From Escherichia phage p000y, in the sequence record MK047718.1: DNA of 64,000 bases; one strand, written 5' to 3'. Numbering within the stretch: the first letter of the stretch is position 1; each line of letters starts with the position of its first letter. Positions 28,143 through 58,902 of the stretch are shown here, piece by piece. The notes under the pieces are model-generated. The model searched no databases. It was not told where the DNA came from and saw only the letters and a program-made list of their open reading frames with translations. The translations under genes and the position numbers were made by a program.

Positions 28143-30854
28143 ATGAAAGAATTTTACTTAACGGTTGAACAGATTGGTGATTCAATTTTTGAACGTTACA
28201 TCGATTCTAATGGCCGTGAACGTACTCGTGAAGTAGAATATAAACCATCACTGTTTGCTCATTGTCCAGAAAGTCAGGCTACGAAATATTTCGATATCTA
28301 CGGTAAGCCGTGTACTCGTAAGTTGTTCGCTAATATGCGTGATGCCTCCCAATGGATTAAACGCATGGAAGATATCGGACTTGAAGCACTTGGCATGGAC
28401 GATTTCAAATTGGCGTATTTGTCTGACACTTATAACTATGAAATCAAATACGACCATACAAAAATTCGTGTGGCTAACTTCGACATCGAAGTAACATCTC
28501 CGGACGGGTTCCCTGAGCCGGCACAAGCAAAGCATCCGATTGATGCTATCACCCATTATGACTCAATTGACGACAGGTTCTATGTATTTGATCTATTGAA
28601 TTCTCCATACGGCAATGTGGAAGAATGGTCTATCGAAATTGCGGCTAAGCTTCAAGAACAAGGTGGTGATGAAGTTCCATCCGAAATTATCGACAAAATT
28701 GTTTATATGCCGTTTGATAATGAAAAAGAATTATTGATGGAATATCTCAACTTCTGGCAACAGAAAACTCCTGTCATTTTGACTGGATGGAACGTTGAGT
28801 CATTTGATATTCCATATGTGTATAACCGAATCAAGAATATTTTTGGCGAATCTACTGCGAAACGTTTATCACCACATCGTAAAACTCGTGTTAAAGTTAT
28901 CGAAAACATGTATGGTTCTCGTGAAATCATTACATTGTTCGGTATCTCTGTTCTTGATTACATTGACCTTTACAAAAAGTTCTCTTTCACGAACCAACCG
29001 TCGTATTCTCTGGATTACATTTCAGAATTTGAATTGAACGTTGGTAAACTGAAATATGACGGCCCTATTTCTAAACTTCGTGAAAGCAATCACCAACGAT
29101 ATATTTCTTATAACATTATCGATGTGTATCGTGTATTGCAAATTGATGCTAAGCGTCAGTTCATCAACTTGAGTTTGGACATGGGTTATTATGCTAAAAT
29201 TCAGATTCAATCTGTGTTCAGTCCAATTAAAACATGGGATGCTATTATTTTTAATAGCCTTAAAGAGCAGAACAAGGTGATTCCACAAGGTCGTTCTCAC
29301 CCGGTTCAACCTTATCCTGGCGCTTTTGTTAAGGAACCTATTCCAAATCGATACAAATATGTAATGAGTTTCGACCTTACATCTCTGTATCCAAGTATTA
29401 TTCGCCAAGTGAATATTAGCCCTGAAACAATAGCAGGAACGTTTAAAGTAGCTCCACTGCATGATTATATTAACGCAATCGCTGAACGTCCTTCAGATGT
29501 GTACAGTTGCTCTCCTAACGGCATGATGTATTATAAAGACCGTGATGGTGTAGTTCCAACTGAAATCACTAAGGTCTTTAATCAACGTAAAGAACATAAA
29601 GGTTACATGCTTGCAGCTCAACGTAATGGTGAAATAATTAAAGAGGCATTGCATAATCCTAATCTTTCTGTTGACGAACCATTAGATGTTGATTATCGTT
29701 TTGACTTCACTGACGAGATTAAAGAAAAGATTAAAAAGTTGTCTGCTAAATCTCTTAATGAAATGTTGTTTAGAGCTCAACGTACTGAAGTTGCAGGTAT
29801 GACTGCACAAATTAACCGTAAATTGCTTATCAACTCACTTTATGGTGCACTTGGCAACGTTTGGTTCCGTTATTATGATTTGCGTAATGCTACTGCAATC
29901 ACAACATTTGGTCAAATGGCTTTACAGTGGATTGAACGTAAAGTTAATGAATATCTGAATGAAGTTTGTGGTACAGAAGGTGAAGCTTTCGTTCTTTATG
30001 GTGATACAGACTCTATTTACGTATCTGCTGATAAAATTATCGATAAGGTTGGTGAATCTAAATTCCGTGATACCAACCATTGGGTAGACTTCTTAGATAA
30101 GTTTGCTCGTGAACGTATGGAACCTGCTATTGATAGAGGTTTCCGTGAAATGTGTGAATACATGAACAATAAACAACACTTAATGTTCATGGACCGAGAA
30201 GCTATCGCTGGGCCTCCGCTTGGTTCTAAAGGTATTGGCGGATTTTGGACTGGTAAGAAACGTTATGCATTAAACGTGTGGGATATGGAAGGTACTCGTT
30301 ACGCTGAGCCTAAACTCAAAATCATGGGTCTCGAAACACAGAAATCTTCGACTCCTAAAGCAGTACAGAAAGCTCTTAAAGAATGTATTCGTCGTATGCT
30401 TCAAGAAGGTGAAGAATCATTACAAGAATATTTTAAAGAGTTTGAAAAAGAATTCCGTCAATTGAATTATATTAGCATCGCGTCGGTATCTTCTGCGAAT
30501 AACATTGCTAAATATGATGTAGGTGGATTCCCGGGTCCTAAATGCCCGTTCCATATTCGTGGAATTCTGACATATAACCGAGCTATCAAAGGTAATATTG
30601 ATGCACCACAAGTTGTAGAAGGTGAAAAAGTATATGTTCTGCCTTTACGTGAAGGAAACCCATTCGGTGATAAATGTATCGCATGGCCTTCTGGTACTGA
30701 AATCACAGATTTAATTAAAGACGATGTACTTCATTGGATGGACTACACTGTTCTCCTTGAGAAGACATTTATTAAACCACTTGAAGGATTCACATCAGCA
30801 GCTAAACTCGATTACGAGAAGAAAGCATCTCTGTTCGATATGTTTGATTTTTGA
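28143..30854 (+). CDS. 43: DNA polymerase gp43 (family B)
   Basis: 903 aa; exo motif FDIEV, pol motifs DLTSLYPSII, KLLINSLYG, YGDTDS; length and N-terminus read as RB69-type gp43. Confidence 0.95.
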   Translation: MKEFYLTVEQIGDSIFERYIDSNGRERTREVEYKPSLFAHCPESQATKYFDIYGKPCTRKLFANMRDASQWIKRMEDIGLEALGMDDFKLAYLSDTYNYEIKYDHTKIRVANFDIEVTSPDGFPEPAQAKHPIDAITHYDSIDDRFYVFDLLNSPYGNVEEWSIEIAAKLQEQGGDEVPSEIIDKIVYMPFDNEKELLMEYLNFWQQKTPVILTGWNVESFDIPYVYNRIKNIFGESTAKRLSPHRKTRVKVIENMYGSREIITLFGISVLDYIDLYKKFSFTNQPSYSLDYISEFELNVGKLKYDGPISKLRESNHQRYISYNIIDVYRVLQIDAKRQFINLSLDMGYYAKIQIQSVFSPIKTWDAIIFNSLKEQNKVIPQGRSHPVQPYPGAFVKEPIPNRYKYVMSFDLTSLYPSIIRQVNISPETIAGTFKVAPLHDYINAIAERPSDVYSCSPNGMMYYKDRDGVVPTEITKVFNQRKEHKGYMLAAQRNGEIIKEALHNPNLSVDEPLDVDYRFDFTDEIKEKIKKLSAKSLNEMLFRAQRTEVAGMTAQINRKLLINSLYGALGNVWFRYYDLRNATAITTFGQMALQWIERKVNEYLNEVCGTEGEAFVLYGDTDSIYVSADKIIDKVGESKFRDTNHWVDFLDKFARERMEPAIDRGFREMCEYMNNKQHLMFMDREAIAGPPLGSKGIGGFWTGKKRYALNVWDMEGTRYAEPKLKIMGLETQKSSTPKAVQKALKECIRRMLQEGEESLQEYFKEFEKEFRQLNYISIASVSSANNIAKYDVGGFPGPKCPFHIRGILTYNRAIKGNIDAPQVVEGEKVYVLPLREGNPFGDKCIAWPSGTEITDLIKDDVLHWMDYTVLLEKTFIKPLEGFTSAAKLDYEKKASLFDMFDF

Positions 30855-30894
30855 TATAATGCCAAGGACGGCCAACTAATTAAATGAGAGAAAT

Positions 30895-31530
30895 ATGAAA
30901 ACTACACCAATCACTATCGCTATTGACGCAATCGTAAAACAAGCTTCATCTCTTGCCACTATGGCTAAAGTAATTAGTCAAAACCCTGCTCGTTATAATG
31001 CTATTCTAGAAACTCTTCGACGCCCGGGACTTAGTAATTATGAAAGCCGAGTAATTATTACAGGTGTTGGTAAGAACGCTAATATCGCAACTAAAGCTTC
31101 CGAGACTTTTGCTTCACTCGGTATCCCAAGTATGTACTTGAACACTGGGCATTATTCTCATGGTGACGCAGGATTTATTGCACCTAATGATGTATTAGTT
31201 CACATCAGTCGTTCTGGTAAGACTGAAGAAATGATAGGTGTTGCTAAACATCTTCGTATGATTCGTCCTCAGGTTAAACAGATTCTGTTACATTGTAACC
31301 CTGACATTCCACAAGAATACGAAGCTCTTTTTGATTATACGTTCTGTACCGGTATCGCGGTAGAAGTTGACGAGAACTCTTTAGCTCCGACAATGTCTAC
31401 TACATTGTTGTTAGCGCTTATCGATACGTTCGCTATCAACCTTTCGTCTGAACGTGGATTTACCTCTAATGACTTCCTTAAGTTCCATCCAGGCGGTGCA
31501 CTAGGTGCCATGTTACGAGGCGAACAATGA
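30895..31530 (+). CDS. SIS-domain sugar-phosphate isomerase (KdsD/arabinose-5-phosphate isomerase-like)
   Basis: 211 aa; ITGVGKNANIATKASETFASLGIPS...HGDAG...HISRSGKTEE follows the KdsD/GutQ SIS pattern (GxGKS, ATFASxG, HGDxG, SxSGxTxE). Confidence 0.6.
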   Translation: MKTTPITIAIDAIVKQASSLATMAKVISQNPARYNAILETLRRPGLSNYESRVIITGVGKNANIATKASETFASLGIPSMYLNTGHYSHGDAGFIAPNDVLVHISRSGKTEEMIGVAKHLRMIRPQVKQILLHCNPDIPQEYEALFDYTFCTGIAVEVDENSLAPTMSTTLLLALIDTFAINLSSERGFTSNDFLKFHPGGALGAMLRGEQ

Positions 31531-31670
31531 AAGCAATAACAATAGGACTTTTACTATTGATGCTTGTCATGACTATCTACTGGAGCTTAACGGCTCCAGT
31601 AATGATTCCAACACTTGTAATTGGATGGATTATGATTGGACTACAAGCAAAGTATGAATGCTTTAACTAG
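31527..31670 (+). CDS. Small hydrophobic membrane peptide, 47 aa
   Basis: ATGA-coupled to the SIS gene; MKAITIGLLLLMLVMTIYWSLTAPVMIPTLVIGWIMIGL...; below the track cutoff. Confidence 0.4.
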   Translation: MKAITIGLLLLMLVMTIYWSLTAPVMIPTLVIGWIMIGLQAKYECFN

Positions 31671-31711
31671 AATAGTGTACAATACTCCTACTTACCAATG
31701 AGGACTTCAAC

Positions 31712-33397
31712 ATGAAAAAAGCTGTTATTCTTGGTGCTGGATTGGCAACTCGTTTATATCCAATAACGCATCATATTCCTAAGGTGCTTGTTAACTATAA
31801 ACAAGACACTATTCTGAGCAATTTGTATACAATTTATTCTGACCTTGGCGCAGATGAAATTATTGTAGTAGTTCATTCAAAATTTGCTGAAACTGTTCGA
31901 GCTTATTGTGAGCAAGAAGGGTTCAATGTGACTATTCGTACAGTTGATGAAGCATACGGTTCTGCTTATGCTCTTGCTAAATTACACAAAGATTTAGACG
32001 GCCATAACGTAATTGTTAACTGGTGTGATATTATTCCTGACTTTGGTTCATGGTCTTGGAATGTTAACGCAATCTATGTTAAGGGTGATGAATGTCGATA
32101 TAATTTCGATGGTGAAAATATCACTAACGTAGGTTCAACAGGTGGTAATGTTGTAGGAATTTATCAGTTCAAAGACTGGGAATTCTACATGGGTTCTACT
32201 GATGAGGAAATTCACGAATACTGCAAAGGTCGTGATTTCGTAGAATTCCTTTACGGCAGTGCATTCAATAAATCAGAGCTTATGAATCTAATTGATTTAG
32301 GTGATATGCCTAAACTTGAAAAGGCTCATGAAGTTCGTGAACTGAATCGTAGTTTTAATGCAGTTGAAATTGGCGAAGAAACTGTAACTAAATTCGCGTT
32401 AACCGAACAAGGTCGAGCTCTTCAAAAAGATGAGATTTCATGGTATTTGAAAGTGAAATCAGATTCAGTTCCTCAGTTAGTTTCGGTAAATGAAAATAAT
32501 TTTGAAATGGAACGTATTAAAGGTAAGCCGGCATTTGAATATATTAAATCCAAATCAAGTCTTGCTCGTCCACAAATTGTTGATGCAATTTTAGATGCAC
32601 TGAAATTCAGCACGGACACTTATTTTGTAAGTCCTGAAACTGTTCGCCGTGATTTCACTAAAGAGTTCTATACGAAAGTTATTGATCGTTGTGAAAGCAT
32701 TCAGCCATTGATTGATTCATTTGGTAAAATCACACACGTGAACTACACTAAAATTGGACGTCTGAAGCCAATGTTGAAACAAGCTTTAGAACATCTTATT
32801 CGTTATCATAACCGTTCTCAGGGACAGTACTCTGTTATTCATGGTGACCCGAACTTCAGTAATACTATGATTACCGATAACGGCGAAGTCAAGTTTATCG
32901 ACCCTCGTGGATATTTTGGTGAAACCAAGATTTACGGGCCAAAATTATATGATGAAGCTAAAGTGCTTTATGCTGTTTCAGGTTATGATGAATTCAATGC
33001 TAATCCGACCTGGGGACAGTTTACTATTGATGAAACAACTTGTAATGTGACTATTAACATCAATCCATTAGTTTACAAATATGGAAAGATGAGTTCGTTT
33101 AACGAGTATCATCATTTGGCTGTAGCAATTATCTGGATTGCATTAGGTGGTTATTTCAAGAATAATCCACTTAAAGCGGTTGCCGCATATTATAAAGGTA
33201 TGGAACTTCTGACTAAGCAATTACGTAACATGGGCCGTGTACTTCAAGACGGCTCTATTAGTTATGACGTAGCAGAACCTGTAACGGCTACTCTGATTAC
33301 AAAAAATCCTGGTAAATGGGTACTAACTGATAAAGAAACTGGTGTTTCCTATCGTCCAATCGGCGGCGATATCACTCATCAATGGGAACGAATCTAA
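31712..33397 (+). CDS. Bifunctional sugar-1-phosphate nucleotidyltransferase / APH-fold anomeric sugar kinase (MurU-AmgK-like fusion)
   Basis: 561 aa; N-terminal NTase motif AVILGAGLATRL; C-terminal kinase motifs HGDPNFSNTMI and FIDPRGYFG; RBS TGAGGA. Confidence 0.6.
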   Translation: MKKAVILGAGLATRLYPITHHIPKVLVNYKQDTILSNLYTIYSDLGADEIIVVVHSKFAETVRAYCEQEGFNVTIRTVDEAYGSAYALAKLHKDLDGHNVIVNWCDIIPDFGSWSWNVNAIYVKGDECRYNFDGENITNVGSTGGNVVGIYQFKDWEFYMGSTDEEIHEYCKGRDFVEFLYGSAFNKSELMNLIDLGDMPKLEKAHEVRELNRSFNAVEIGEETVTKFALTEQGRALQKDEISWYLKVKSDSVPQLVSVNENNFEMERIKGKPAFEYIKSKSSLARPQIVDAILDALKFSTDTYFVSPETVRRDFTKEFYTKVIDRCESIQPLIDSFGKITHVNYTKIGRLKPMLKQALEHLIRYHNRSQGQYSVIHGDPNFSNTMITDNGEVKFIDPRGYFGETKIYGPKLYDEAKVLYAVSGYDEFNANPTWGQFTIDETTCNVTININPLVYKYGKMSSFNEYHHLAVAIIWIALGGYFKNNPLKAVAAYYKGMELLTKQLRNMGRVLQDGSISYDVAEPVTATLITKNPGKWVLTDKETGVSYRPIGGDITHQWERI

Positions 33398-33783
33398 TGC
33401 ACCGTGTAGAAAACATGCTTAATCTTTGTTTTGATGTCGATGATTGTATAACAGAGTGGAATAACAATCGTGATTACGTGAACTTCAAACCAGACGTCGA
33501 AATGGTGTCTGCCATTAATGCCCTGTATGATGCAGGGCATACCATAACGCTTTACACTGCCCGTGGTATGAAGTCGGTAGGTCCTGGTCGTATAGCAATT
33601 GACATTCTCCCAAGTCTGATTCAGAACTTGGAAAACATTGGTTTGAAGTACCATAATTTGCTAACACATAAACCAGTATATGATTGGATTATCGACGACA
33701 AAGCTATGCGTCCTGACGAATTCAAAGCTCTTATGAATAAAGGCGAATTCGAAACATTTAAATCATATAAACCAAATCTATAA
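33397..33783 (+). CDS. HAD-superfamily phosphatase (KdsC-like), about 128 aa
   Basis: HAD motif I FDVDDCIT, motif II LYTARG, motif IV WIIDDKA; TAATG overlap with the upstream gene. Confidence 0.55.
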   Translation: MHRVENMLNLCFDVDDCITEWNNNRDYVNFKPDVEMVSAINALYDAGHTITLYTARGMKSVGPGRIAIDILPSLIQNLENIGLKYHNLLTHKPVYDWIIDDKAMRPDEFKALMNKGEFETFKSYKPNL

Positions 33784-33829
33784 TAATTTAAGTAAGACCT
33801 GCAAAAACCATCGCATCAATTAACGCGAG

Positions 33830-34999
33830 ATGCAAAAAATGAATACTTTTAAAATCGGAACGAATTTTGATTTAGCTCTTCTTGATAAAATCGTAGAGCT
33901 CAATAAAACCTATCCTAATAGCTTGATAAACGAAGTATATGGCTCTACAAGAGAAATGGCTTTTGTAGCAGCCAGACCTGATTTTAGGCTTCCTGACGTT
34001 GACAAAAAGATGTTAGAAGACTACGTTAAACGTTGTAACGAATTAGGTATTTGCTTTAACTATACACTCAACACGATAAATCCTGGTTCAAAAAGAGAAC
34101 TAGTTGAGTGGAAGAAGAAAGCTATTCAGGATTATGTTCAGTATCTTTGGTCAATAGGCGTATGGCGTATTACTATCGCTAACCCTGTTGTTATGGAAAT
34201 TGTTCGTGAAGTCAATAAAGATATTGAGATTGAAGTTTCAACAATTCTACATGTCGATGCGGTAACTCAAATCAAATACTTACATGACCAATATAACATC
34301 AAAAAGGTCTGTTGCGGAATTCATAAGAACCGTTCAGTTTCTTTCCTGAAGCGTGCAGCAGAGTTTTGCAATAAGAACAATATAATATTTGAAGTTCTTG
34401 TAAATGAGTTCTGTTCTAATGCTGGTAAAGGGTATACAACACATTGTAGTTATCGTGACTCTTGCTATATTTTCCATAGTACTGATGTTACCGCTGATGA
34501 TGCTAAATCCTTAAATGGATATCCTATGCAGCACTGTATTAAAGCTCGTGATACAGACCCATTTAACTGGTTGAGAACTCGTTTTGTTCGTCCTCAAGAT
34601 TTGAAACTTTATAATGATATTGGTATCACTCAATTCAAAGTTTCAGGACGTACAGGTAGCACAGACTACATTTTGAAAGTTCTTGAAGCATACGCTTCTG
34701 AAAAGTTTGAAGGTAATTTGTTAGAACTGTGGAAGCCTTTAGAGACTATTTTCACTCTTGAAAATGAGACTGAGTTTTCACATACAGTAAATATTGAAAC
34801 CTCTTTGTTAGATGGCTTTTTAGAAAAAAGGTGGTTCAGACATCCAGATTTTGATTGTGCTAATGAAATCTGTGGGTCAACGTGTACATATTGTGAAAGG
34901 TATTATAAACGTCAATTATCTAAAAACGGGTTAGCAGAAAACTCCATATCTATTATTGATATAACTAACTCTGATGACGCTTTGAGGTACCCGGAATGA
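33830..34999 (+). CDS. Cys-rich enzyme of unknown function, 389 aa (possibly peptidase-U32-like/Fe-S)
   Basis: Clustered cysteines (VCCGIH, FCSNAGKGYTTHCSYRDSCY, C-terminal CANEICGSTCTYC); family assignment is tentative. Confidence 0.35.
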   Translation: MQKMNTFKIGTNFDLALLDKIVELNKTYPNSLINEVYGSTREMAFVAARPDFRLPDVDKKMLEDYVKRCNELGICFNYTLNTINPGSKRELVEWKKKAIQDYVQYLWSIGVWRITIANPVVMEIVREVNKDIEIEVSTILHVDAVTQIKYLHDQYNIKKVCCGIHKNRSVSFLKRAAEFCNKNNIIFEVLVNEFCSNAGKGYTTHCSYRDSCYIFHSTDVTADDAKSLNGYPMQHCIKARDTDPFNWLRTRFVRPQDLKLYNDIGITQFKVSGRTGSTDYILKVLEAYASEKFEGNLLELWKPLETIFTLENETEFSHTVNIETSLLDGFLEKRWFRHPDFDCANEICGSTCTYCERYYKRQLSKNGLAENSISIIDITNSDDALRYPE

Positions 35000-35235
35000 T
35001 TTCTAGAAAAAGTTTTAATTATAAACTTAACGAAGAGATTTTGACTATGAAACTGAACACTAACGAACAAATTCTTAAAAAGGCCCTTATGGGCCTGTTT
35101 GAAACCAAAGCGGCTAAAGTGATTAAAGAACCTGTTCAATTGGAATACTACACTGATGCATTCCTTCATAGTGTTCTTGGAAGTATAGATTCTGAAGCTT
35201 TACGTTATATCAACATTGTCAAGAAATTCAAATAA
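34996..35235 (+). CDS. Hypothetical protein, 79 aa
   Basis: ATGA-coupled ORF. Confidence 0.35.
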   Translation: MISRKSFNYKLNEEILTMKLNTNEQILKKALMGLFETKAAKVIKEPVQLEYYTDAFLHSVLGSIDSEALRYINIVKKFK

Positions 35236-35258
35236 GCTTTACGAATTGAGTATATAAT
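35236..35258 (+). promoter_or_regulatory. Middle promoter (GCTTTA plus TATAAT) upstream of the hydroxymethylase gene
   Basis: GCTTTA 35236-35241, 11 nt, TATAAT 35253-35258; RBS GAGG before ATG 35278. Confidence 0.5.
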
Positions 35259-35277
35259 AAATTGTATTGAGGTAAAC

Positions 35278-35994
35278 ATGGGAAAACATAACACAATGAA
35301 ATATATCAAAGCCGCAGATTTTCAAACCGCATTTAAAGCAGTCAATCGTGAAATTTTAGAAAACCCGGAATTCGTAACTGATTCTCGTATTGGACGTTGT
35401 AATGAAATTGGGTCTATGACAGTAGTTGTTGACACTCCATCATCATTCAAAATGACCGACCCACGTATTAACCGCATCTCTTATGAATATGCCGAAGACT
35501 TCTGGAAGTTTATGATTTCTGGTGGTACCAACGCAGAAGAAGCGTTTAAGGCATATCCTAATGTCGCTAAATTTATTTCTAAACCAAAATCAGATGTTTT
35601 GCCGGCGAACTTCAACACTTTCTATGGTCCTCGCATTGCGGCCCAATTACCAACTCTTCTAAAAGAACTTAAAGAAAAACCTAACTCTCGAAGAGTTGTG
35701 TTCCAAATTCTAGAAAGTTCTGATCAGGCTTTGCTTGATTCGGACGAAACACTTGAATATCCATGTACTGACTCAGTAACTTATTATATTCGTGATGGTA
35801 AGCTTTATACCCACTGTCATATGCGTTCTCAGAACTGTGCTGTTGTTATGCAGTTGGATTTTTATCTCCAAGGAAAATTACTTCATTATATCGCTAACGA
35901 ATGCGGTGTAGAAGTTGGTGATTATACTCATACCATGGTAAGTGCCCATGTGTTTGAACGTGATTTTGATTATGTTAAAGGATTCCTTGACTAA
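35278..35994 (+). CDS. 42: Thymidylate-synthase-fold pyrimidine hydroxymethylase (gp42 dCMP hydroxymethylase-like, divergent)
   Basis: 238 aa; nucleophile-Cys context YPCTDSVTYYIRD and HMRSQN typical of the TS / dCMP-hydroxymethylase fold; same position as T4 gene 42. Confidence 0.6.
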   Translation: MGKHNTMKYIKAADFQTAFKAVNREILENPEFVTDSRIGRCNEIGSMTVVVDTPSSFKMTDPRINRISYEYAEDFWKFMISGGTNAEEAFKAYPNVAKFISKPKSDVLPANFNTFYGPRIAAQLPTLLKELKEKPNSRRVVFQILESSDQALLDSDETLEYPCTDSVTYYIRDGKLYTHCHMRSQNCAVVMQLDFYLQGKLLHYIANECGVEVGDYTHTMVSAHVFERDFDYVKGFLD

Positions 35995-36893
35995 TGGCTA
36001 TTTTCCGCGTACCAATCTTGAGTATGCGGTCTTATGAAACTGGACAGTATGCTATCCTTAAGGATGGCAACTTCCAACTTCATTTGCACCGTGCTAATCC
36101 GGGTGATGTGATTACATATCCACGTAATGCATCTGATATTAAAGAATGCGAACGTCTTTTCCCAGAATTTAAGTTTGTTCCATTATGGTATAAAGATAAC
36201 GCGTATAACACTCGTAAATATTTCTGGACTGAAAATGAATTTGTGGTTGATTCATTAATTGATTATTATGATTGTGATTTTCTAATCACAGATATCACTG
36301 GTTATGGCGGCGCTTTTGATGTGGAATTCAATTTCAATATCACTGCAGACCCTAATAAACCACGTTTTTATATTGATGAATTCTTAAAAACCGACATGTT
36401 GTCTGTTAATCGTTCACTTCAAACTACTGTGTTGAATGAACGTCAAAAAGAAGTGCTGGTTAACGCAGGTGCAGATGGTAATAAGATTATCGTAACGCAG
36501 AAAGTTATACGTCCTTCCATCATGCAGCGTCTTGTAGGTGATTTGGCTCCTATTCATCTAGATGGTATTTTTCATCCATTTCGAATTAGTGACCCATGTT
36601 ATCGTTTTGAACAAGTGGTTGAATGTGCAATTCAATTAGGTCAACCGCTTTATATAACCGATCCAAATAATAGCTTCGACAGAAATAAGTATCCTGAAGA
36701 AGCGCTGATTCGAATTTTTAAACCAACTAAAACTGAGTACTATCAAATTCTTAAAGGACGTCCGAAAATTCAATATTTCGAAAATCCTGAAGAAGTATTC
36801 CATCCAGGTCTTGGTGAGTTCATCTACTTTAATGCTTTAATTTCTTCGCCGTATAATATACCTAAATACGAAGATGTCGTAATCGAGGAATAA
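35994..36893 (+). CDS. Hypothetical protein, 299 aa, at the position of T4 beta-glucosyltransferase
   Basis: ATGA-coupled to the hydroxymethylase gene; no recognisable motif. Confidence 0.4.
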   Translation: MAIFRVPILSMRSYETGQYAILKDGNFQLHLHRANPGDVITYPRNASDIKECERLFPEFKFVPLWYKDNAYNTRKYFWTENEFVVDSLIDYYDCDFLITDITGYGGAFDVEFNFNITADPNKPRFYIDEFLKTDMLSVNRSLQTTVLNERQKEVLVNAGADGNKIIVTQKVIRPSIMQRLVGDLAPIHLDGIFHPFRISDPCYRFEQVVECAIQLGQPLYITDPNNSFDRNKYPEEALIRIFKPTKTEYYQILKGRPKIQYFENPEEVFHPGLGEFIYFNALISSPYNIPKYEDVVIEE

Positions 36894-36894
36894 A

Positions 36895-37443
36895 ATGGCT
36901 AAAATTATTTTAGTAGATGGCCCGGATAATGCTGGTAAAACAACTTTCATTAATGACATAATGGAAATTAGTGAAAGATATGTAAAGATTGATTTCCCTA
37001 AACGAACAGTTGATGGACGTTTCGATGTTAAGTCTCGAAATGAAGTTGGCTGTTTCGAAACGATGTTGAATTATTTAGACCCTACTAAGATTTATCTGTT
37101 AGACCGTGGATATATTAGTAACTGGGTTTATGGACGTATTCGACAAGATGCGGACTCGATTCTTGACGTTTATGAACAGGACTATGTTCGTCTTTGCCAA
37201 AACCATGATGTGTTCACAATTATTTTAACACGTAACGAAATGACTGAAAGTTTTGAAGACGACCTTATTACTTTGTCTTCATTCGGTTTTAATACAGTCA
37301 TTTCACATTTTGAAGAGTTTGCAATTCATAACAAAATCCAAACGTATCAATTACTTAATCATGATGGTGCTAACAAAGTTATAGGATTTAATGCAAGCGA
37401 ACGTAATTATTTGATTACAGAAATTATCAAATGGGCTCGTTAA
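36895..37443 (+). CDS. P-loop nucleoside/nucleotide kinase-like protein, 182 aa
   Basis: Walker A ILVDGPDNAGKTT, then LLDRGYISNWVYG resembling the dNK/TMPK fold. Confidence 0.5.
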   Translation: MAKIILVDGPDNAGKTTFINDIMEISERYVKIDFPKRTVDGRFDVKSRNEVGCFETMLNYLDPTKIYLLDRGYISNWVYGRIRQDADSILDVYEQDYVRLCQNHDVFTIILTRNEMTESFEDDLITLSSFGFNTVISHFEEFAIHNKIQTYQLLNHDGANKVIGFNASERNYLITEIIKWAR

Positions 37444-37541
37444 GAGCCATTTAAAGTTTTAAATGCTGTATAACCCTTAGTATATAATCATCTTATCTTT
37501 TAAACATGAGTAAAATATAATGATGCCTATGGAAAAATACA

Positions 37542-38714
37542 ATGTCTGATTTAAAATCTCGTCTGATTAAAGCTTCTACTTCTAAAATGACTGCAGACTT
37601 GACTAAGTCTAAGCTGTTTAATAATCGTGATGAAGTCCCTACTCGTATTCCGATGTTGAATATTGCATTAGGTGGTGCACTGAATGCCGGGTTGCAATCA
37701 GGCTTAACTATTTTTGCTGCTCCTTCTAAACACTTTAAAACGTTGTTTGGGCTGACCATGGTTGCAGCATATATGAAGAAATATAAAGATGCAATCTGTT
37801 TGTTTTATGACTCAGAATTCGGTGCTTCAGAATCTTATTTTCGTTCAATGGGTGTTGATTTAGACCGTGTAGTTCATACTCCGATTCAATCTGTCGAACA
37901 ACTTAAAGTTGATATGACTAATCAGCTTGACGCGATTGAACGCGGTGATAAAGTTATTATCTTTATCGATTCAATCGGTAATACTGCATCTAAGAAAGAA
38001 ACCGAAGATGCGTTGAACGAGAAAGTTGTAGGTGATATGTCTCGTGCTAAGGCACTTAAATCTCTGTTTCGCATTGTGACCCCGTATCTGACTATTAAAG
38101 ATATTCCGTGTGTTGCAATTAACCATACCGCAATGGAAATCGGCGGACTATATCCTAAAGAGATTATGGGTGGTGGTACAGGTATTCTTTACTCTGCTAA
38201 CACTGTATTCTTTATCTCTAAACGTCAGGTTAAAGAAGGTACAGAATTGACCGGTTATGACTTCACGTTGAAAGCAGAAAAATCTCGTACAGTTAAAGAG
38301 AAATCTACTTTCCCAATCACAGTTAATTTTGATGGTGGTATCGACCCATTCAGTGGCTTGTTAGAAATGGCAACTGAAATTGGTTTTGTAGTTAAGCCTA
38401 AAGCCGGGTGGTATGCTCGTGAATTCCTTGACGAAGAAACAGGTGAAATGATTCGTGAAGAGAAATCATGGCGTGCTAAAGCTACTGATTGTGTAGAATT
38501 CTGGGGACCGTTGTTTAAACACAAACCTTTCCGTGACGCAATTGAAACTAAATATAAACTAGGTGCTATCTCTTCTATTAAAGAAGTTGATGACGCTGTT
38601 AATGACCTTATTAATTGCAAAGCAACAACTAAAGTTCCGGTTAAAACTTCTGATGCTCCGTCTGCAGCAGATATAGAAAACGACCTTGATGAAATGGAAG
38701 ATTTCGATGAATAA
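37542..38714 (+). CDS. uvsX: Recombinase UvsX (RecA-like)
   Basis: 390 aa; ...MLNIALGGALNAGLQSGLTIFAAPSKHFKT... RecA-fold Walker A; reads as T4 UvsX. Confidence 0.92.
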   Translation: MSDLKSRLIKASTSKMTADLTKSKLFNNRDEVPTRIPMLNIALGGALNAGLQSGLTIFAAPSKHFKTLFGLTMVAAYMKKYKDAICLFYDSEFGASESYFRSMGVDLDRVVHTPIQSVEQLKVDMTNQLDAIERGDKVIIFIDSIGNTASKKETEDALNEKVVGDMSRAKALKSLFRIVTPYLTIKDIPCVAINHTAMEIGGLYPKEIMGGGTGILYSANTVFFISKRQVKEGTELTGYDFTLKAEKSRTVKEKSTFPITVNFDGGIDPFSGLLEMATEIGFVVKPKAGWYAREFLDEETGEMIREEKSWRAKATDCVEFWGPLFKHKPFRDAIETKYKLGAISSIKEVDDAVNDLINCKATTKVPVKTSDAPSAADIENDLDEMEDFDE

Positions 38715-45310: not shown

Positions 45311-45832
45311 ATGGCACACTTTAACGAATGTTCACAACTTATTTCCGGTGTTGATAAAGCAGAAGAAGCTTATTTTAATGCTCTGATTCACGAAGATAAA
45401 GACCCACTGCAGGTAATGCTTGATATGCAGAAATCTTTACAGGTTCGTCTGGCAAATGACAAGCCTGAACATAACAAACATCCTGATGAATTGGCCACTG
45501 CTGGTGATGTTGTTGATTGGCTGCGTAATCAGAAAGATTATATTGATGATGAATTTCGTGAACTGCTGACTTCACTTGGTGGTATGAGCAACGGTGAAAA
45601 AGCCGCCAGCAGTGTATGGAAGCCGTGGAAGGCACAACATGCTGAATATCGTAATCGTCGTATTGATGAACTGTCTCCTGAAGACCAGCTCGAAATTAAA
45701 TTCGAAATGATTGATATTCTGCACTTCGTTCTGAACATGTTCCAAGGTCTGGGTCTTTCTGCTGAAGAAATCTTTAAACTGTATTATCTGAAGAATGCTG
45801 AAAACTTTGCTCGTCAAGACCGAGGTTATTAA
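45311..45832 (+). CDS. 56: dCTPase/dCTP pyrophosphatase gp56 (MazG-like)
   Basis: 173 aa from ATG 45311 (RBS AAGGAAA); MAHFNEC...DPLQVMLDMQ...LANDKPE...LSPEDQLEIKFE...AEEIFKLYYLKNAENFARQDRGY reads as T4 gp56. Confidence 0.9.
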   Translation: MAHFNECSQLISGVDKAEEAYFNALIHEDKDPLQVMLDMQKSLQVRLANDKPEHNKHPDELATAGDVVDWLRNQKDYIDDEFRELLTSLGGMSNGEKAASSVWKPWKAQHAEYRNRRIDELSPEDQLEIKFEMIDILHFVLNMFQGLGLSAEEIFKLYYLKNAENFARQDRGY

Positions 45833-55941: not shown

Positions 55942-57759
55942 ATGATTAAAAATGAAATTAAGGTATTGTCAGATGTAGAACATATTAAGAAACGTAGTGG
56001 TATGTATATTGGTTCTTCTGCTAAAGAAGCACATGAGCGTTTTTTGTTTGGTAAATATCAACAAGTTGAATATGTTCCAGGTCTGGTTAAATTAATCGAT
56101 GAGATTATTGACAACTCGGTTGATGAAGCTATTCGTACATCATTTAAGTTTGCAAATAAAATTGATGTGCAAATTAAAAATAATCAAGTTTCGGTGGAAG
56201 ATAACGGACGTGGTATTCCTCAAGGTTTAGTTACCGACCAAACAGGTGAACAAATTCCTGGTCCTGTAGCAGCCTGGACTATTCCAAAGGCCGGTGGTAA
56301 CTTTGGTGATGACTCTGAACGCAAGACTGGTGGTATGAACGGCGTCGGGAGTAGTTTAACTAATATCTTCTCTACGTTGTTTACAGGCATCACGTCAGAT
56401 GGCGAAAATGAAATCACTGTTAACTGTTCAAACGGAATGGAAAACAAATCATGGTCTTCTAAGAAATCTAAAGGTAAAGGCACTAAAGTAATCTTCACTC
56501 CTGATTTCTCTTCATTTGAAGAGCATAATTTATCTCAAATTTATTTAGATATTACTTTAGACAGACTTCAAACATTGGCAGTCGTTTATCCTGATATCAA
56601 GTTCACATTTAATGGTAAAAAGGTTGATGGTAATTTTAAACGATTTGCTAAACAATTTGGTGAAGATAACATCATTCAAGAAAATGATAAAGTCTCTATA
56701 GCATTCACAACATCACCAGATGGCTTCCGTCATTTAACTTATGTGAATAACATCCATACTAAAAATGGTGGTCATCATGTTGAATGTGTAATGGATGATA
56801 TCTGCGAACATCTTTTGCCTGGTATTAAAAAGAAATATAAGGGTATTGAAGTCACTAAAGCTCGTGTTAAAGAATGCCTCACAATGTTGATGTTTATTAG
56901 AGACATGAGCAATATGCGTTTTGATTCTCAGACTAAAGAACGTTTAACGTCAACGTATGGTGATATTCGTAATCATATCCAATTAGATGCTAAGAAAATT
57001 GCTCAGGCACTTCTTAAAAACGAAGCCTTGATTATGCCTATTGTTGAAGCAGCATTAGCTCGTAAATTGGCGGCAGAAAAGGCTGCAGAAACTAAAGCAG
57101 CTAAAAAGGCAACTAAAGCTAAGGTTCATAAGCATATTAAAGCTAACCAATGTGGTAAAGACGCAGATACGACATTGTTCTTAACAGAAGGTGATTCTGC
57201 AATTGGTTATCTCATTGATGTTCGTGACCGTGAACTACACGGCGGATTCCCATTACGTGGTAAGGTGATGAATAGCTGGGGTATGTCATATGCGGATATG
57301 ATGAAGAACAAAGAGCTCTTTGATATCTGTGCTATCACAGGTCTTATTCTTGGTGAAAAGGCCGAGAATACGAACTATCGTAATATTGCAATTATGACTG
57401 ACGCAGATCACGACGGTCTTGGAAGTATCTATCCGGCTTTGCTTGCTTTCTTTAGTAATTGGCCTGAATTGTTTGAACAAGGACGTATTCGCTTTGTTAA
57501 AACACCTGTAATTATTGCACAAATTGGCAAAACTCAAAAATGGTTTTATACTGTAGCTGAGTATGAAGAAGTTAAAGATACACTGCCTAAGCATAGTATT
57601 CGATACATCAAGGGATTAGGCTCCCTTGAAAAGTCAGAGTATCGTGAAATGATTCAGAACCCTGTGTACGACGTAGTTAAACTTCCTGAAAATTGGAAAG
57701 AACTCTTTGAAATGTTGATGGGTGATGATTCAGAACTTCGTAAAGAATGGATGTCCTAA
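55942..57759 (+). CDS. 39: DNA topoisomerase II large subunit gp39 (uninterrupted 39+60-type)
   Basis: 605 aa; GHKL ATPase region plus TOPRIM motif LTEGDSAIGY; single ORF rather than the split 39/60 arrangement of T4. Confidence 0.88.
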   Translation: MIKNEIKVLSDVEHIKKRSGMYIGSSAKEAHERFLFGKYQQVEYVPGLVKLIDEIIDNSVDEAIRTSFKFANKIDVQIKNNQVSVEDNGRGIPQGLVTDQTGEQIPGPVAAWTIPKAGGNFGDDSERKTGGMNGVGSSLTNIFSTLFTGITSDGENEITVNCSNGMENKSWSSKKSKGKGTKVIFTPDFSSFEEHNLSQIYLDITLDRLQTLAVVYPDIKFTFNGKKVDGNFKRFAKQFGEDNIIQENDKVSIAFTTSPDGFRHLTYVNNIHTKNGGHHVECVMDDICEHLLPGIKKKYKGIEVTKARVKECLTMLMFIRDMSNMRFDSQTKERLTSTYGDIRNHIQLDAKKIAQALLKNEALIMPIVEAALARKLAAEKAAETKAAKKATKAKVHKHIKANQCGKDADTTLFLTEGDSAIGYLIDVRDRELHGGFPLRGKVMNSWGMSYADMMKNKELFDICAITGLILGEKAENTNYRNIAIMTDADHDGLGSIYPALLAFFSNWPELFEQGRIRFVKTPVIIAQIGKTQKWFYTVAEYEEVKDTLPKHSIRYIKGLGSLEKSEYREMIQNPVYDVVKLPENWKELFEMLMGDDSELRKEWMS

Positions 57760-57782
57760 GCTCCTTCGGGAGCTTCATTTTA
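57759..57782 (+). terminator. Rho-independent terminator after gene 39
   Basis: AGCTCC-TTCG-GGAGCT followed by a T-rich tract. Confidence 0.6.
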
Positions 57783-57801
57783 ATTTTAATAAGGCTTAAT
57801 T

Positions 57802-58902
57802 ATGAAAGTTATGTTTATCCCATCTCGCGCAGTCCCATTTAACCCAGAACGTGTACAAGGTGGTCTTGAAGCAGTACATTTAAATGTGTTGAAATATTTA
57901 GTTTCTATCTGTGCTGATATTGATTATATCGGTTTTGATAATGACACATTTGGTGATTGGAAGGTTAATCATCATCCTGTTGGTCATCTGACAAAATTCA
58001 GTCTAGGTATGAGTTATACTATGGCTCGTAAGATTGTTGAACTAGCCGGCATCCATGAATACGATTTCGTTGTTACTATGGAACCGACTAAACTAACCGT
58101 TCAGGCAATTAAAGACGCAGGCCTCTCTAAAGTTCATAAGAATTTTATGGCAACACCATTTGAACCGGTATCTCGTGGCATTGTTCAAATTTGGGACCAG
58201 ACTATTCAAATTCATAAGAATGGTGGTAAGAGTTATGCTCCTACTAAAGCCTTCCGTGAATTTGAACGCAAATATTGTTATATGACTTCAGGTCTGACTG
58301 ACAAAATTGATTATGATTATTGGCGAGCAAATCCGTTGTTTGAAGCCGAAGATTATCCGGTTATTTGTTTGAATGAGAAACCTGAAGTTCTTCCGGCGAC
58401 GGATCTGATTATTAGTGCACAACGTTATGACACTAAAATGCGTCGTACTGATGTTGCTCTTGAAGCGATTAAAGCACTAGGCGAAAATGGTGCAGGATAC
58501 TGTCCTAGTAAATGGGCACCACCAGCTAAATATCCTGTTATTATTGATGCTCCACACAGTGAAATCATGGAACGCCTTAAAACAGCTAAAGCACTTATTA
58601 ATACGTGTCCTGACACAGGTACGGTAGAGAATAGTTCTATTGAAGCCATCTCTAAAGGTGTCCCTGTAATCCAGTTAGTTTTTAAGGATTATCCTCATGC
58701 GACATTTGAATACGACCCAGATACTGTGCGTGTAGAAATTGATTCCTCTACTCCTAAGAAAGAAGTAGTTGCGCTTTACACAAAAGCTGTATTAGAATTC
58801 ACTGACACATACGAAGCTCGAGTTAAACGTGCTGAAGCAGTATGGAAGAAGTATAACCGAGATGCAGTTGTTGCGATGTGGGATAAAATCTTCACAGCGT
58901 AA
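57802..58902 (+). CDS. GT-B fold glycosyltransferase (GT4-like), 366 aa; candidate DNA sugar transferase
   Basis: N-terminal MKVMFIP...GGLEAVHLNVLKYL and C-terminal TGTVENSSIEAISKGVPVI resemble GT4 donor-binding motifs; RBS AAGG. Confidence 0.55.
   Translation: MKVMFIPSRAVPFNPERVQGGLEAVHLNVLKYLVSICADIDYIGFDNDTFGDWKVNHHPVGHLTKFSLGMSYTMARKIVELAGIHEYDFVVTMEPTKLTVQAIKDAGLSKVHKNFMATPFEPVSRGIVQIWDQTIQIHKNGGKSYAPTKAFREFERKYCYMTSGLTDKIDYDYWRANPLFEAEDYPVICLNEKPEVLPATDLIISAQRYDTKMRRTDVALEAIKALGENGAGYCPSKWAPPAKYPVIIDAPHSEIMERLKTAKALINTCPDTGTVENSSIEAISKGVPVIQLVFKDYPHATFEYDPDTVRVEIDSSTPKKEVVALYTKAVLEFTDTYEARVKRAEAVWKKYNRDAVVAMWDKIFTA

Follow-up and report, generated by a model that had tools for sequence, protein, structure and literature searches.

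In a 64,000-nucleotide (nt) stretch of the genome of Escherichia phage p000y (MK047718.1), referred to as the window, two adjoining open reading frames (ORFs) were confirmed on the + strand: 35278-35994, coding for a thymidylate synthase (TS)-like protein of 238 amino acids (aa), and 35994-36893, coding for a protein of 299 aa here termed GT299. The same two genes are annotated in the RefSeq entry of Escherichia phage p000v, a Mosigvirus (RB69-like) to which the region 31500-37600 is 99.4 % identical; identity to about 150 further Mosigvirus genomes (RB69 group) is at least 95 % over this region. The gene order in p000y is gp43 - isomerase - 561-aa protein - HAD phosphatase - U32 protein - 79-aa ORF - TS-like protein - GT299 - 182-aa kinase - UvsX - gp40 - gp41 (Table 1). 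The counterpart stretch of phage T4 reads 43-imm-42-beta-gt-segA-uvsX, and by virtue of this T4-like order the initial annotation was right to place the two genes at the positions of gene 42 and beta-gt. The ATGA overlap proposed for them has to be corrected, since the junction reads GAC TAA TGG, the stop codon (35992-35994) sharing a single base with the start codon of GT299 (35994-35996; TAATG). GT299 itself ends with TAA, and the ATG of the kinase gene follows one base further (TAAAATG). A GAGG ribosome-binding site is located 5 nt ahead of the ATG of the TS-like ORF.

The 238-aa protein matches the Pfam family Thymidylat_synt (PF00303; E 1.9e-15), and the TS fold is also apparent from its AlphaFold2 model, which compares to PDB entry 9iqc and to MilA with TM values of 0.94 and 0.85, respectively. 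The TS-type Cys nucleophile context already recognized from the sequence alone was recovered (C163 in the motif LEYPC), as was the divergence from T4 gp42, to which identity is only 25 % (BLASTP E 3e-13). Identity amounts to 99 % with RB69 gp48 and to 97 % over all 238 residues with the PDB entries 9iqc, 9ir2 and 9iqu (E 2.9e-160 for 9iqc), two of which are entitled 'Monooxygenase dependent on riboflavin with dCMP and FAD' (9iqc) and 'phage HY126 dCMP hydroxylase-AfhB with substrate dCMP' (9iqu).

Catalytic residues were mapped by aligning E. coli ThyA (sequence of PDB 1aob), T4 gp42, RB69 gp48 and the 238-aa protein. The nucleophile is kept (ThyA C146 to C163) and so are the phosphate ligands (R126/R127 and R166/S167 to R138/R139 and R183/S184). 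Two further positions agree with gp42: an acidic residue replaces L143 of ThyA (E160), and Asp replaces N177 (D194). The latter position was to be checked for the Asp versus Asn that discriminates dCMP from dUMP, and Asp194 there answers the question in favour of dCMP as substrate. In contrast to ThyA and gp42, which both possess Asp at ThyA position 169, the p000y protein has Asn (N186, in the motif RSQN); moreover, the segment aligned with that around W80 of ThyA reads PNVAKF and lacks the Trp, where gp42 and ThyA have K/T-I-W. In a set of 51 genomic and metagenomic homologues (52-86 % identity), E160, C163, R183, S184, N186 and D194 do not vary; they are also kept in the representatives from Winklervirus, Dhakavirus, Thanatos and Acinetobacter phages, the hydroxylase group displaying mutual identities of 68-99 %.

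Asn at position 169 (D169N) is the published diagnostic of an enzyme branch forming 5-hydroxy-dCMP (5hodCMP): RB69 gp48 was reported to produce this nucleotide (5-hydroxydeoxycytidine, 5hodC, in vivo), to take up 18O from 18O2 and to co-purify with FMN, and nine more D169N homologues all yielded 5hodC (Lee et al., NAR 2026, PMC13326640). Judged by its sequence, the 238-aa protein possesses every feature of this 5hodCMP synthase branch and lacks the folate-site features of gp42-type hydroxymethylases; from the proteins 99 and 97 % identical to it, it would be expected to bind flavin and to form 5hodCMP in an O2-dependent manner. It shares length (238 residues), genomic position and the residues C163, E160, N186 and D194 with RB69 gp48 and HY126 AfhB, and the few conservative substitutions relative to AfhB in 9iqc (e.g. 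T17S, E31Q, N85D, E87K, V107A, T126A) are not expected to alter function.

GT299 corresponds to an uninterrupted version of RB69 ORF047c (97 % identity) and ORF046c (100 %). The split of this gene in the RB69 reference has been ascribed to a sequencing error (gp46:47; Lee et al., PMC13326640), for which the single intact ORF of p000y provides independent support. RB69 NC_004928 also splits the counterpart of the 561-aa gene (ORF053c/052c). Since both genes are single intact ORFs in p000y and in hundreds of relatives, genuine pseudogenes fit these splits less well than errors in the reference sequence.

In agreement with the initial annotation, no glycosyltransferase (GT) motif is recognizable in the sequence of GT299: no match was obtained with Pfam, NCBIfam or PDB sequences, and profile comparison (hhalign) of the GT299 family revealed similarity neither to T4 beta-glucosyltransferase (beta-GT) nor to the phage's own GT4-like 366-aa GT. 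GT299 did not correspond to a known non-enzymatic T4 protein either. Among phages of Escherichia, Acinetobacter, Klebsiella, Serratia, Proteus, Yersinia and others, 348 records contain a homologue (44-100 % identity), and none of the 136 clusters of the family in a large protein collection carries a Pfam domain. The structure model of GT299, in contrast, is a confident GT-B fold, in which a cleft separates two Rossmann-like domains. MshA (3c4q) is its top Foldseek match, and further structural neighbours (values in brackets) are sucrose-phosphate synthase 6kih (17.6), BshA (16.8), PimA (16.0), the phage HY126 GT 9iqz (14.6) and T4 alpha-glucosyltransferase 1y6f (13.2); the same structural matches were listed for RB69 gp46:47 (Lee et al., PMC13326640). 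Based on the model, GT299 is predicted to be a compact GT-B enzyme with retaining GT4 members as closest structures, which is consistent with the alpha linkage of the base-proximal arabinose. Of the two roles initially offered for the ORF, second sugar transferase or unknown modification enzyme, the model thus favours that of a sugar transferase. By sequence it displays the features of no GT family, and it is not a homologue of beta-GT.

Among the residues invariant in the GT299 family are S10-M-R-S13, K23-D-G-N26, R74, D134 and N148 (N-terminal half) as well as F193, P195-F-R197, D200, T222, P224-N225, K246 and H270-P-G272 (C-terminal half); position 275 is invariably acidic (E or D). Retaining GT4-type GT-B enzymes (MshA, BshA, PimA, sucrose-phosphate synthase) and T4 alpha-glucosyltransferase share with GT299 the two-Rossmann-domain architecture and the conserved Arg, Lys and acidic residue in the C-terminal domain, where they hold the UDP-sugar. 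They differ in that GT299 is about 60-100 residues shorter, is only 7-13 % identical, lacks a Pfam GT match and the E-x7-E motif, and would use UDP-arabinofuranose (UDP-Araf) as donor and a nucleobase hydroxyl as acceptor. T4 beta-GT (GT63) resembles GT299 in gene position 3' of a TS-fold gene, in GT-B class and in its role as DNA-base sugar transferase (predicted for GT299), yet profile comparison indicates no homology. No difference in kind is apparent between GT299 and RB69 gp46:47, DLP3 gp79 or Thanatos TH1_063, for which the role of arabinosyltransferase 1 has been predicted. Wherever a cluster was examined (Mosigvirus, Winklervirus, Tegunavirus, Dhakavirus, Lazarusvirus, Thanatos), the genes for GT299 and hydroxylase were side by side.

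Hydroxylase and GT299 probably form the core pair for base modification in the pathway by which RB69-like phages make arabinosyl-5-hydroxycytosine. In the initial step, the 238-aa enzyme would bind dCMP as shown for the near-identical proteins, with Asp194 reading the N3/N4 face of cytosine and Arg138, Arg139, Arg183 and Ser184 holding the phosphate. By analogy to TS, Cys163 is then proposed to attack C6, rendering C5 nucleophilic; C5 would take oxygen from reduced flavin and O2, no folate methylene being involved, and release of the Cys would yield 5hodCMP. A dNMP kinase, as shown for RB69, would phosphorylate 5hodCMP to the diphosphate, whereupon 5-hydroxycytosine (5hoC) would replace cytosine in DNA. 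GT299, translationally coupled to the hydroxylase, is predicted to move arabinofuranose from UDP-Araf, supplied by the upstream isomerase, kinase/uridylyltransferase and HAD phosphatase, to the 5-OH group, the product being an alpha-linked base-proximal sugar. Addition of a second arabinose would be accomplished by the 366-aa GT, and DNA modified in this way should be protected from restriction and CRISPR nucleases.

Table 1 Features of the putative cytosine arabinosylation gene cluster and of related genes in the window
Position (nt)	Strand	Feature	Basis
35278..35994	+	TS-fold flavin/O2-dependent dCMP 5-hydroxylase (5hodCMP synthase; predicted), orthologue of RB69 gp48 / HY126 AfhB	sequence and signature residues
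35994..36893	+	compact GT-B-fold glycosyltransferase, predicted first (base-proximal) arabinosyltransferase, 299 aa	= RB69 ORF047c+ORF046c
30895..31530	+	D-arabinose-5-phosphate isomerase (RB69 gp55 homologue)	Pfam SIS domain, p000v annotation; role from PMC13326640
31712..33397	+	bifunctional sugar-1-phosphate nucleotidylyltransferase and kinase, 561 aa (RB69 gp52:53 / HY126 AfhE homologue), makes UDP-arabinofuranose	role from PMC13326640
33382..33783	+	HAD-type phosphatase (RB69 gp51 / HY126 AfhF homologue), Araf-1,5-P2 to Araf-1-P	role from PMC13326640
33830..34999	+	U32-family protein (RB69 gp50 homologue), ten invariant cysteines	Pfam Peptidase_U32 E 7.4e-11, above cut-off
34996..35235	+	79-aa ORF (RB69 ORF049c), no Cys	overlaps U32 stop codon by 4 nt
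35236..35258	+	MotA-box-like middle-promoter motif GCTTTA-N11-TATAAT	20 nt 5' of hydroxylase start codon
36895..37443	+	thymidylate-kinase-like P-loop 'nucleotide kinase', 182 aa (RB69 gp45 homologue)	weak dTMP-kinase match
45311..45832	+	dCTP pyrophosphatase (T4 gp56 / RB69 gp28 homologue), supplies dCMP	Pfam dUTPase_2 / MazG-like; Lee et al. Table 1
57802..58902	+	second GT-B arabinosyltransferase (predicted), 366 aa (RB69 gp3 homologue)	PDB 9iqz/9ir0 match

That the two genes would rather encode a divergent gp42-type dCMP hydroxymethylase and a replacement of beta-GT acting on hydroxymethylcytosine is considered next to negligible in probability. The order of the genes is that of T4 42-beta-gt, and gp42 likewise has the nucleophilic Cys and an Asp at position 177, but D169N, the lost folate Trp and the 97-99 % identity to proven hydroxylases speak against it, as does the lack of similarity between GT299 and beta-GT; N186 and these identities likewise overrule the initial designation of the protein as a hydroxymethylase. 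Many GenBank records carry the label 'dCMP hydroxymethylase' for orthologues of the hydroxylase, and arabinosyl-hydroxymethylcytosine was reported for RB69 in 2018, an assignment that is now regarded as erroneous (PMC13390438). Published chemistry refutes hydroxymethylation for RB69, since nuclear magnetic resonance (NMR) and mass spectrometry (MS) locate the ether link directly at C5 in the DNA of RB69 and also of NicPhage. In the DNA of NicPhage, a Mosigvirus with a GT299 orthologue 99 % identical to that of p000y, 5-ara-dC and 5-ara-ara-dC were detected by HPLC/MS (PMC13390438). T4 gp42 and the CMP hydroxymethylase MilA are similar to the p000y enzyme with respect to TS fold, Cys nucleophile, Asp at N177 and acidic residue at L143, and in the case of gp42 also gene location between gene 43 and uvsX. 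Unlike these, the p000y enzyme has Asn at D169, a replaced Trp80 segment and a 5-residue insert (LPANF), and would employ flavin and O2 to generate 5-OH, where gp42 and MilA use methylene-tetrahydrofolate to generate 5-CH2OH.

As suggested by its structure model, GT299 is very probably arabinosyltransferase 1, putting the first arabinose on the 5-OH group. This accepts, as the best explanation, the prediction by Lee et al., who assigned this role to gp46:47 and noted that its orthologue is the sole arabinosyl-GT in mono-arabinosylated Thanatos (PMC13326640). Several observations weigh against it. The accessible literature contains no positive transfer assay for GT299 or any orthologue. Individual GTs of phage DLP3 were inactive on 5hoC-DNA with either UDP-Araf or UDP-arabinopyranose, and according to the authors it cannot be told whether the first arabinosylation takes place at the mononucleotide level or on DNA (PMC13326640). 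Thanatos TH1_063 was found to form UDP-xylose from UTP and xylose-1-phosphate in vitro, and did not glycosylate plasmid DNA, dCMP or dCTP (PMC12838424), though this negative outcome says little because the acceptors were not hydroxylated. Furthermore, the GT299 family matches no GT profile (Pfam Glycos_transf_1 / Glyco_trans_4, NCBIfam), and the canonical GT4 motif E-x7-E is absent, no conserved acidic partner being located 8 residues from position 275. Finally, the family is acidic (isoelectric points of 4.8-5.7, one member 6.7; T4 beta-GT, 9.05), which argues weakly against DNA as acceptor.

The activity of TH1_063 might be taken to indicate that GT299 is a UDP-pentose pyrophosphorylase making the activated sugar, with all transfers left to the 366-aa GT or another enzyme, the more so as the Thanatos-2 protein at the position of TH1_063 (locus L009:4534-5436) is 48 % identical to GT299 over the full length (E 2e-86). 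Such a function is very unlikely: the fold of GT299 is GT-B and not the nucleotidyltransferase fold of sugar-1-phosphate pyrophosphorylases, and Thanatos lacks any other arabinosyl-GT, yet has mono-glycosylated DNA (Lee et al., PMC13326640). For that step, the cluster already possesses a genuine nucleotidyltransferase domain in the AfhE-like protein. A UDP-xylose pyrophosphorylase activity is unusual for the GT-B fold, and the formation of UDP-xylose is more probably due to a GT-B enzyme that binds UDP-pentose and catalyses a side reaction or runs backwards; glycosyl might be transferred in reverse, with phosphate as surrogate acceptor and contaminating UDP. A less remote, but still unlikely alternative is that GT299 arabinosylates free 5hodCMP and the 182-aa kinase phosphorylates the bulky product, such that the first sugar would be attached prior to replication and later ones on DNA. 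The genes for hydroxylase, GT299 and kinase remain together across distant phages (with tight TAATG and TAAAATG junctions in p000y), kinase-like and GT299-like genes also co-occur beside U32 genes in metagenomic phages, and the closest structures (sucrose-phosphate synthase, MshA, BshA, PimA) use small anionic acceptors. The acidity of the GT299 family and the failure of single GTs to act on 5hoC-DNA in vitro, with the question left open by the authors, would likewise agree with a nucleotide acceptor; isoelectric point and acceptor type of the best match are, however, weak indicators. Against a nucleotide acceptor, RB69 gp48 and a gp1-type dNMP kinase, which converts 5hodCMP to 5hodCDP, suffice for unglycosylated 5hodC in plasmid DNA, demonstrating that a DNA-level acceptor exists, and DLP3 gp76+77 act on DNA (PMC13326640), in line with the T4 paradigm of post-replicative glycosylation.

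The 182-aa kinase is listed in Table 1 of Lee et al. by way of its homologue (PMC13326640), and its Thanatos orthologue has a Pfam Thymidylate_kin match. The gene adjoins that of GT299 or the hydroxylase in all clusters examined, and distant homologues are found near GT299/U32 genes in metagenomic phages. This kinase comes in addition to the dNMP kinase of gp1 type, for which phosphorylation of 5hodCMP has been shown. Such a dedicated kinase could point to arabinosylation at the nucleotide level. Among the proteins assigned to sugar activation, the 561-aa protein is composed of an N-terminal Pfam NTP_transferase domain and a C-terminal part with APH/kinase-like matches, and has NCBIfam uridylyltransferase matches; the HAD phosphatase matches the NCBIfam capsule biosynthesis phosphatase (E 1.9e-13), and its RefSeq homologues start about 15 nt past the first ATG. 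The counterpart of the dCTP pyrophosphatase gene in p000v is labelled 'nucleoside triphosphate pyrophosphohydrolase'. The 366-aa GT matches neither Pfam nor NCBIfam by sequence, and aligns with few mismatches over 366 residues to PDB 9iqz/9ir0, 'phage HY126 glycosyltransferase (with UDP)' (E 4.4e-248); RB69 gp3 is the predicted beta-arabinosyltransferase 2 adding the second arabinose (PMC13326640).

The U32-family protein is encoded by the most conserved gene of the cluster, with at least 82 % identity in all 221 phage records having it; across the same breadth of phages, identities are 68-80 % for the hydroxylase and 44-70 % for GT299. Ten cysteines (C161, C180, C195, C206, C212, C236, C343-x4-C348-x3-C352-x2-C355) are invariant in 40 homologues of 46-85 % identity. 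A search of PDB sequences with the U32 protein returned no match, and the match to NCBIfam UbiU is far below cut-off (E 9e-4). The Pfam U32 domain is shared with the hydroxylases RlhA (ho5C2501), TrhP (ho5U34) and UbiU/UbiV, and the many invariant cysteines would be consistent with iron-sulfur (Fe-S) clusters; the phage protein differs from these E. coli proteins in a Cys spacing departing from C-x6-C-x15-C-x3-C and in an identity of only 14-24 %, the Cys-motif region remaining unaligned with MAFFT. The gene is missing from the Acinetobacter phage cluster examined and from Dhakavirus VR5 (E. coli), and the U32 protein is therefore regarded as accessory. Acinetobacter does not figure in the top ten host names of U32-containing phages, and 57 Acinetobacter phage records carry hydroxylase and GT299.

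In Winklervirus and Thanatos, the U32 gene is directly followed by one for a genuine chorismate mutase of type II (above the cut-off of Pfam CM_2, with E 1.7e-11 and 8.2e-8), and in Tegunavirus TG1 the latter is located one small ORF beyond (U32/chorismate mutase loci L007:4992-6502, L009:6001-7391 of Thanatos-2 and L011:2347-4023). In Thanatos, the pair is positioned 3' of the kinase gene, the two genes remaining adjacent despite the rearranged cluster. Homologues of the chorismate mutase occur in 56 phage records in all, and none was found in the window by local tblastn. Chorismate mutase produces prephenate. UbiU/UbiV, which belong to the U32 family, use the latter as oxygen donor, and two more members, RlhA and TrhP, are required for 5-hydroxycytidine in rRNA and 5-hydroxyuridine in tRNA, respectively, to be formed independently of O2 (PMC10990095). 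The adjacent chorismate mutase of relatives may link the phage protein to prephenate, and the known chemistry of the family includes C5 hydroxylation of cytosine. Lee et al. labelled the phage U32 protein 'sugar or heterocycle reductase' (PMC13326640). The 79-aa ORF following the U32 gene is kept in 162 phage records and has no Pfam match. In Yersinia phage TG1, its homologue is an ORF of 65 aa (E 4e-14) located between the genes for U32 and chorismate mutase. The 79-aa ORF was considered as a degenerate chorismate mutase and rejected, as BLASTP and Pfam revealed no similarity and TG1 carries both genes separately.

A large group of U32 homologues of about 50-58 % identity was detected on phage-like metagenomic contigs (uncultivated; low-GC where linked to GT299). 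At the eight metagenomic loci examined, U32 is located among genes for thymidylate-kinase-like protein, dCMP deaminase, dUTPase/DCD, DNA polymerase III (Pol III) alpha subunit and single-stranded DNA-binding protein. Five of the eight, whose U32 homologues show about 50-55 % identity, harbour a GT299-family gene 5' of U32, directly adjacent in four of them (hidden Markov model E 1e-29 to 1e-39), with a thymidylate-kinase-like gene nearby and next to Pol III alpha (L016:4939-9086, L017:6495-10000, L019:7459-11086, L020:7456-11101, L021:2188-4820). An AfhE-like gene (E 1.5e-46) is present at one of the eight, as are, also at one, genes for a TAGT-like GT and UDP-galactopyranose mutase; a TS-fold gene was found at none of them within 7-10 kb. 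This context suggests for U32 the role of an O2-independent pyrimidine C5 hydroxylase that would replace the TS-fold enzyme in those metagenomic phages and back it up in p000y. O2 is required by the TS-fold enzyme, while anaerobic growth is common among enteric hosts. A cluster with two independent routes to 5-hydroxycytosine, the O2/flavin-dependent one via the TS-fold enzyme and an O2-independent one via a prephenate-dependent Fe-S U32 protein, both feeding the GT299/kinase module and the second sustaining cytosine replacement in an enteric host deprived of oxygen, is a tentative proposal to which somewhat less than an even chance is given. In many uncultivated phages, U32 may be the only hydroxylase.

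The system composed of hydroxylase and GT299 is already known, near-identical proteins having been described, assayed or crystallised in 2025-2026, and p000y therefore adds just another member. A TS-fold enzyme that swaps folate for flavin and hydroxylates dCMP opens up a new site for attaching sugars to DNA, a glycosylation that defeats restriction and CRISPR nucleases. The present analysis sharpens the questions of where the first sugar is attached (nucleotide versus DNA) and which roles the dedicated kinase and U32 play. If true, the proposed function of U32 as an anaerobic substitute for the O2-dependent hydroxylase would explain hypermodified DNA of gut phages without oxygen, and would carry prephenate-dependent hydroxylation beyond RNA and quinones to the precursors of DNA.

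The MotA-box-like motif ahead of the hydroxylase gene would fit middle-mode expression of the type seen with T4 gene 42. The pattern GCTTNA-N10-13-TATAAT occurs eight times in the window as compared to 0.34 expected (8420, 14150, 18316(-), 24689, 35236, 36834, 46885, 49332(-)), the copy at 36834-36857 being part of the GT299 ORF near its 3' end and lying shortly 5' of the kinase gene. A scan of 30500-38000 for sigma-70 promoters and terminators was uninformative, with 21 promoter-like sites and thus fewer than in shuffled sequences (28.5). The Rfam scan of the whole window yielded no family at threshold, and the repeat search of the gene cluster just short matches at chance level. At three large-phage loci devoid of a GT299 homologue, one of them on a contig of 466 kb, a conserved protein of about 248 aa without Pfam match is encoded directly 3' of U32 (L013:8175-8939, L014:8080-8826, L018:9089-9832) and by eye resembles the C-terminal part of SDR epimerases. 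In p000v, a homing endonuclease gene (146415-147212) separates the gene for the large subunit of topoisomerase from that for the second GT, where p000y has a gap of only 42 nt (57759-57802).

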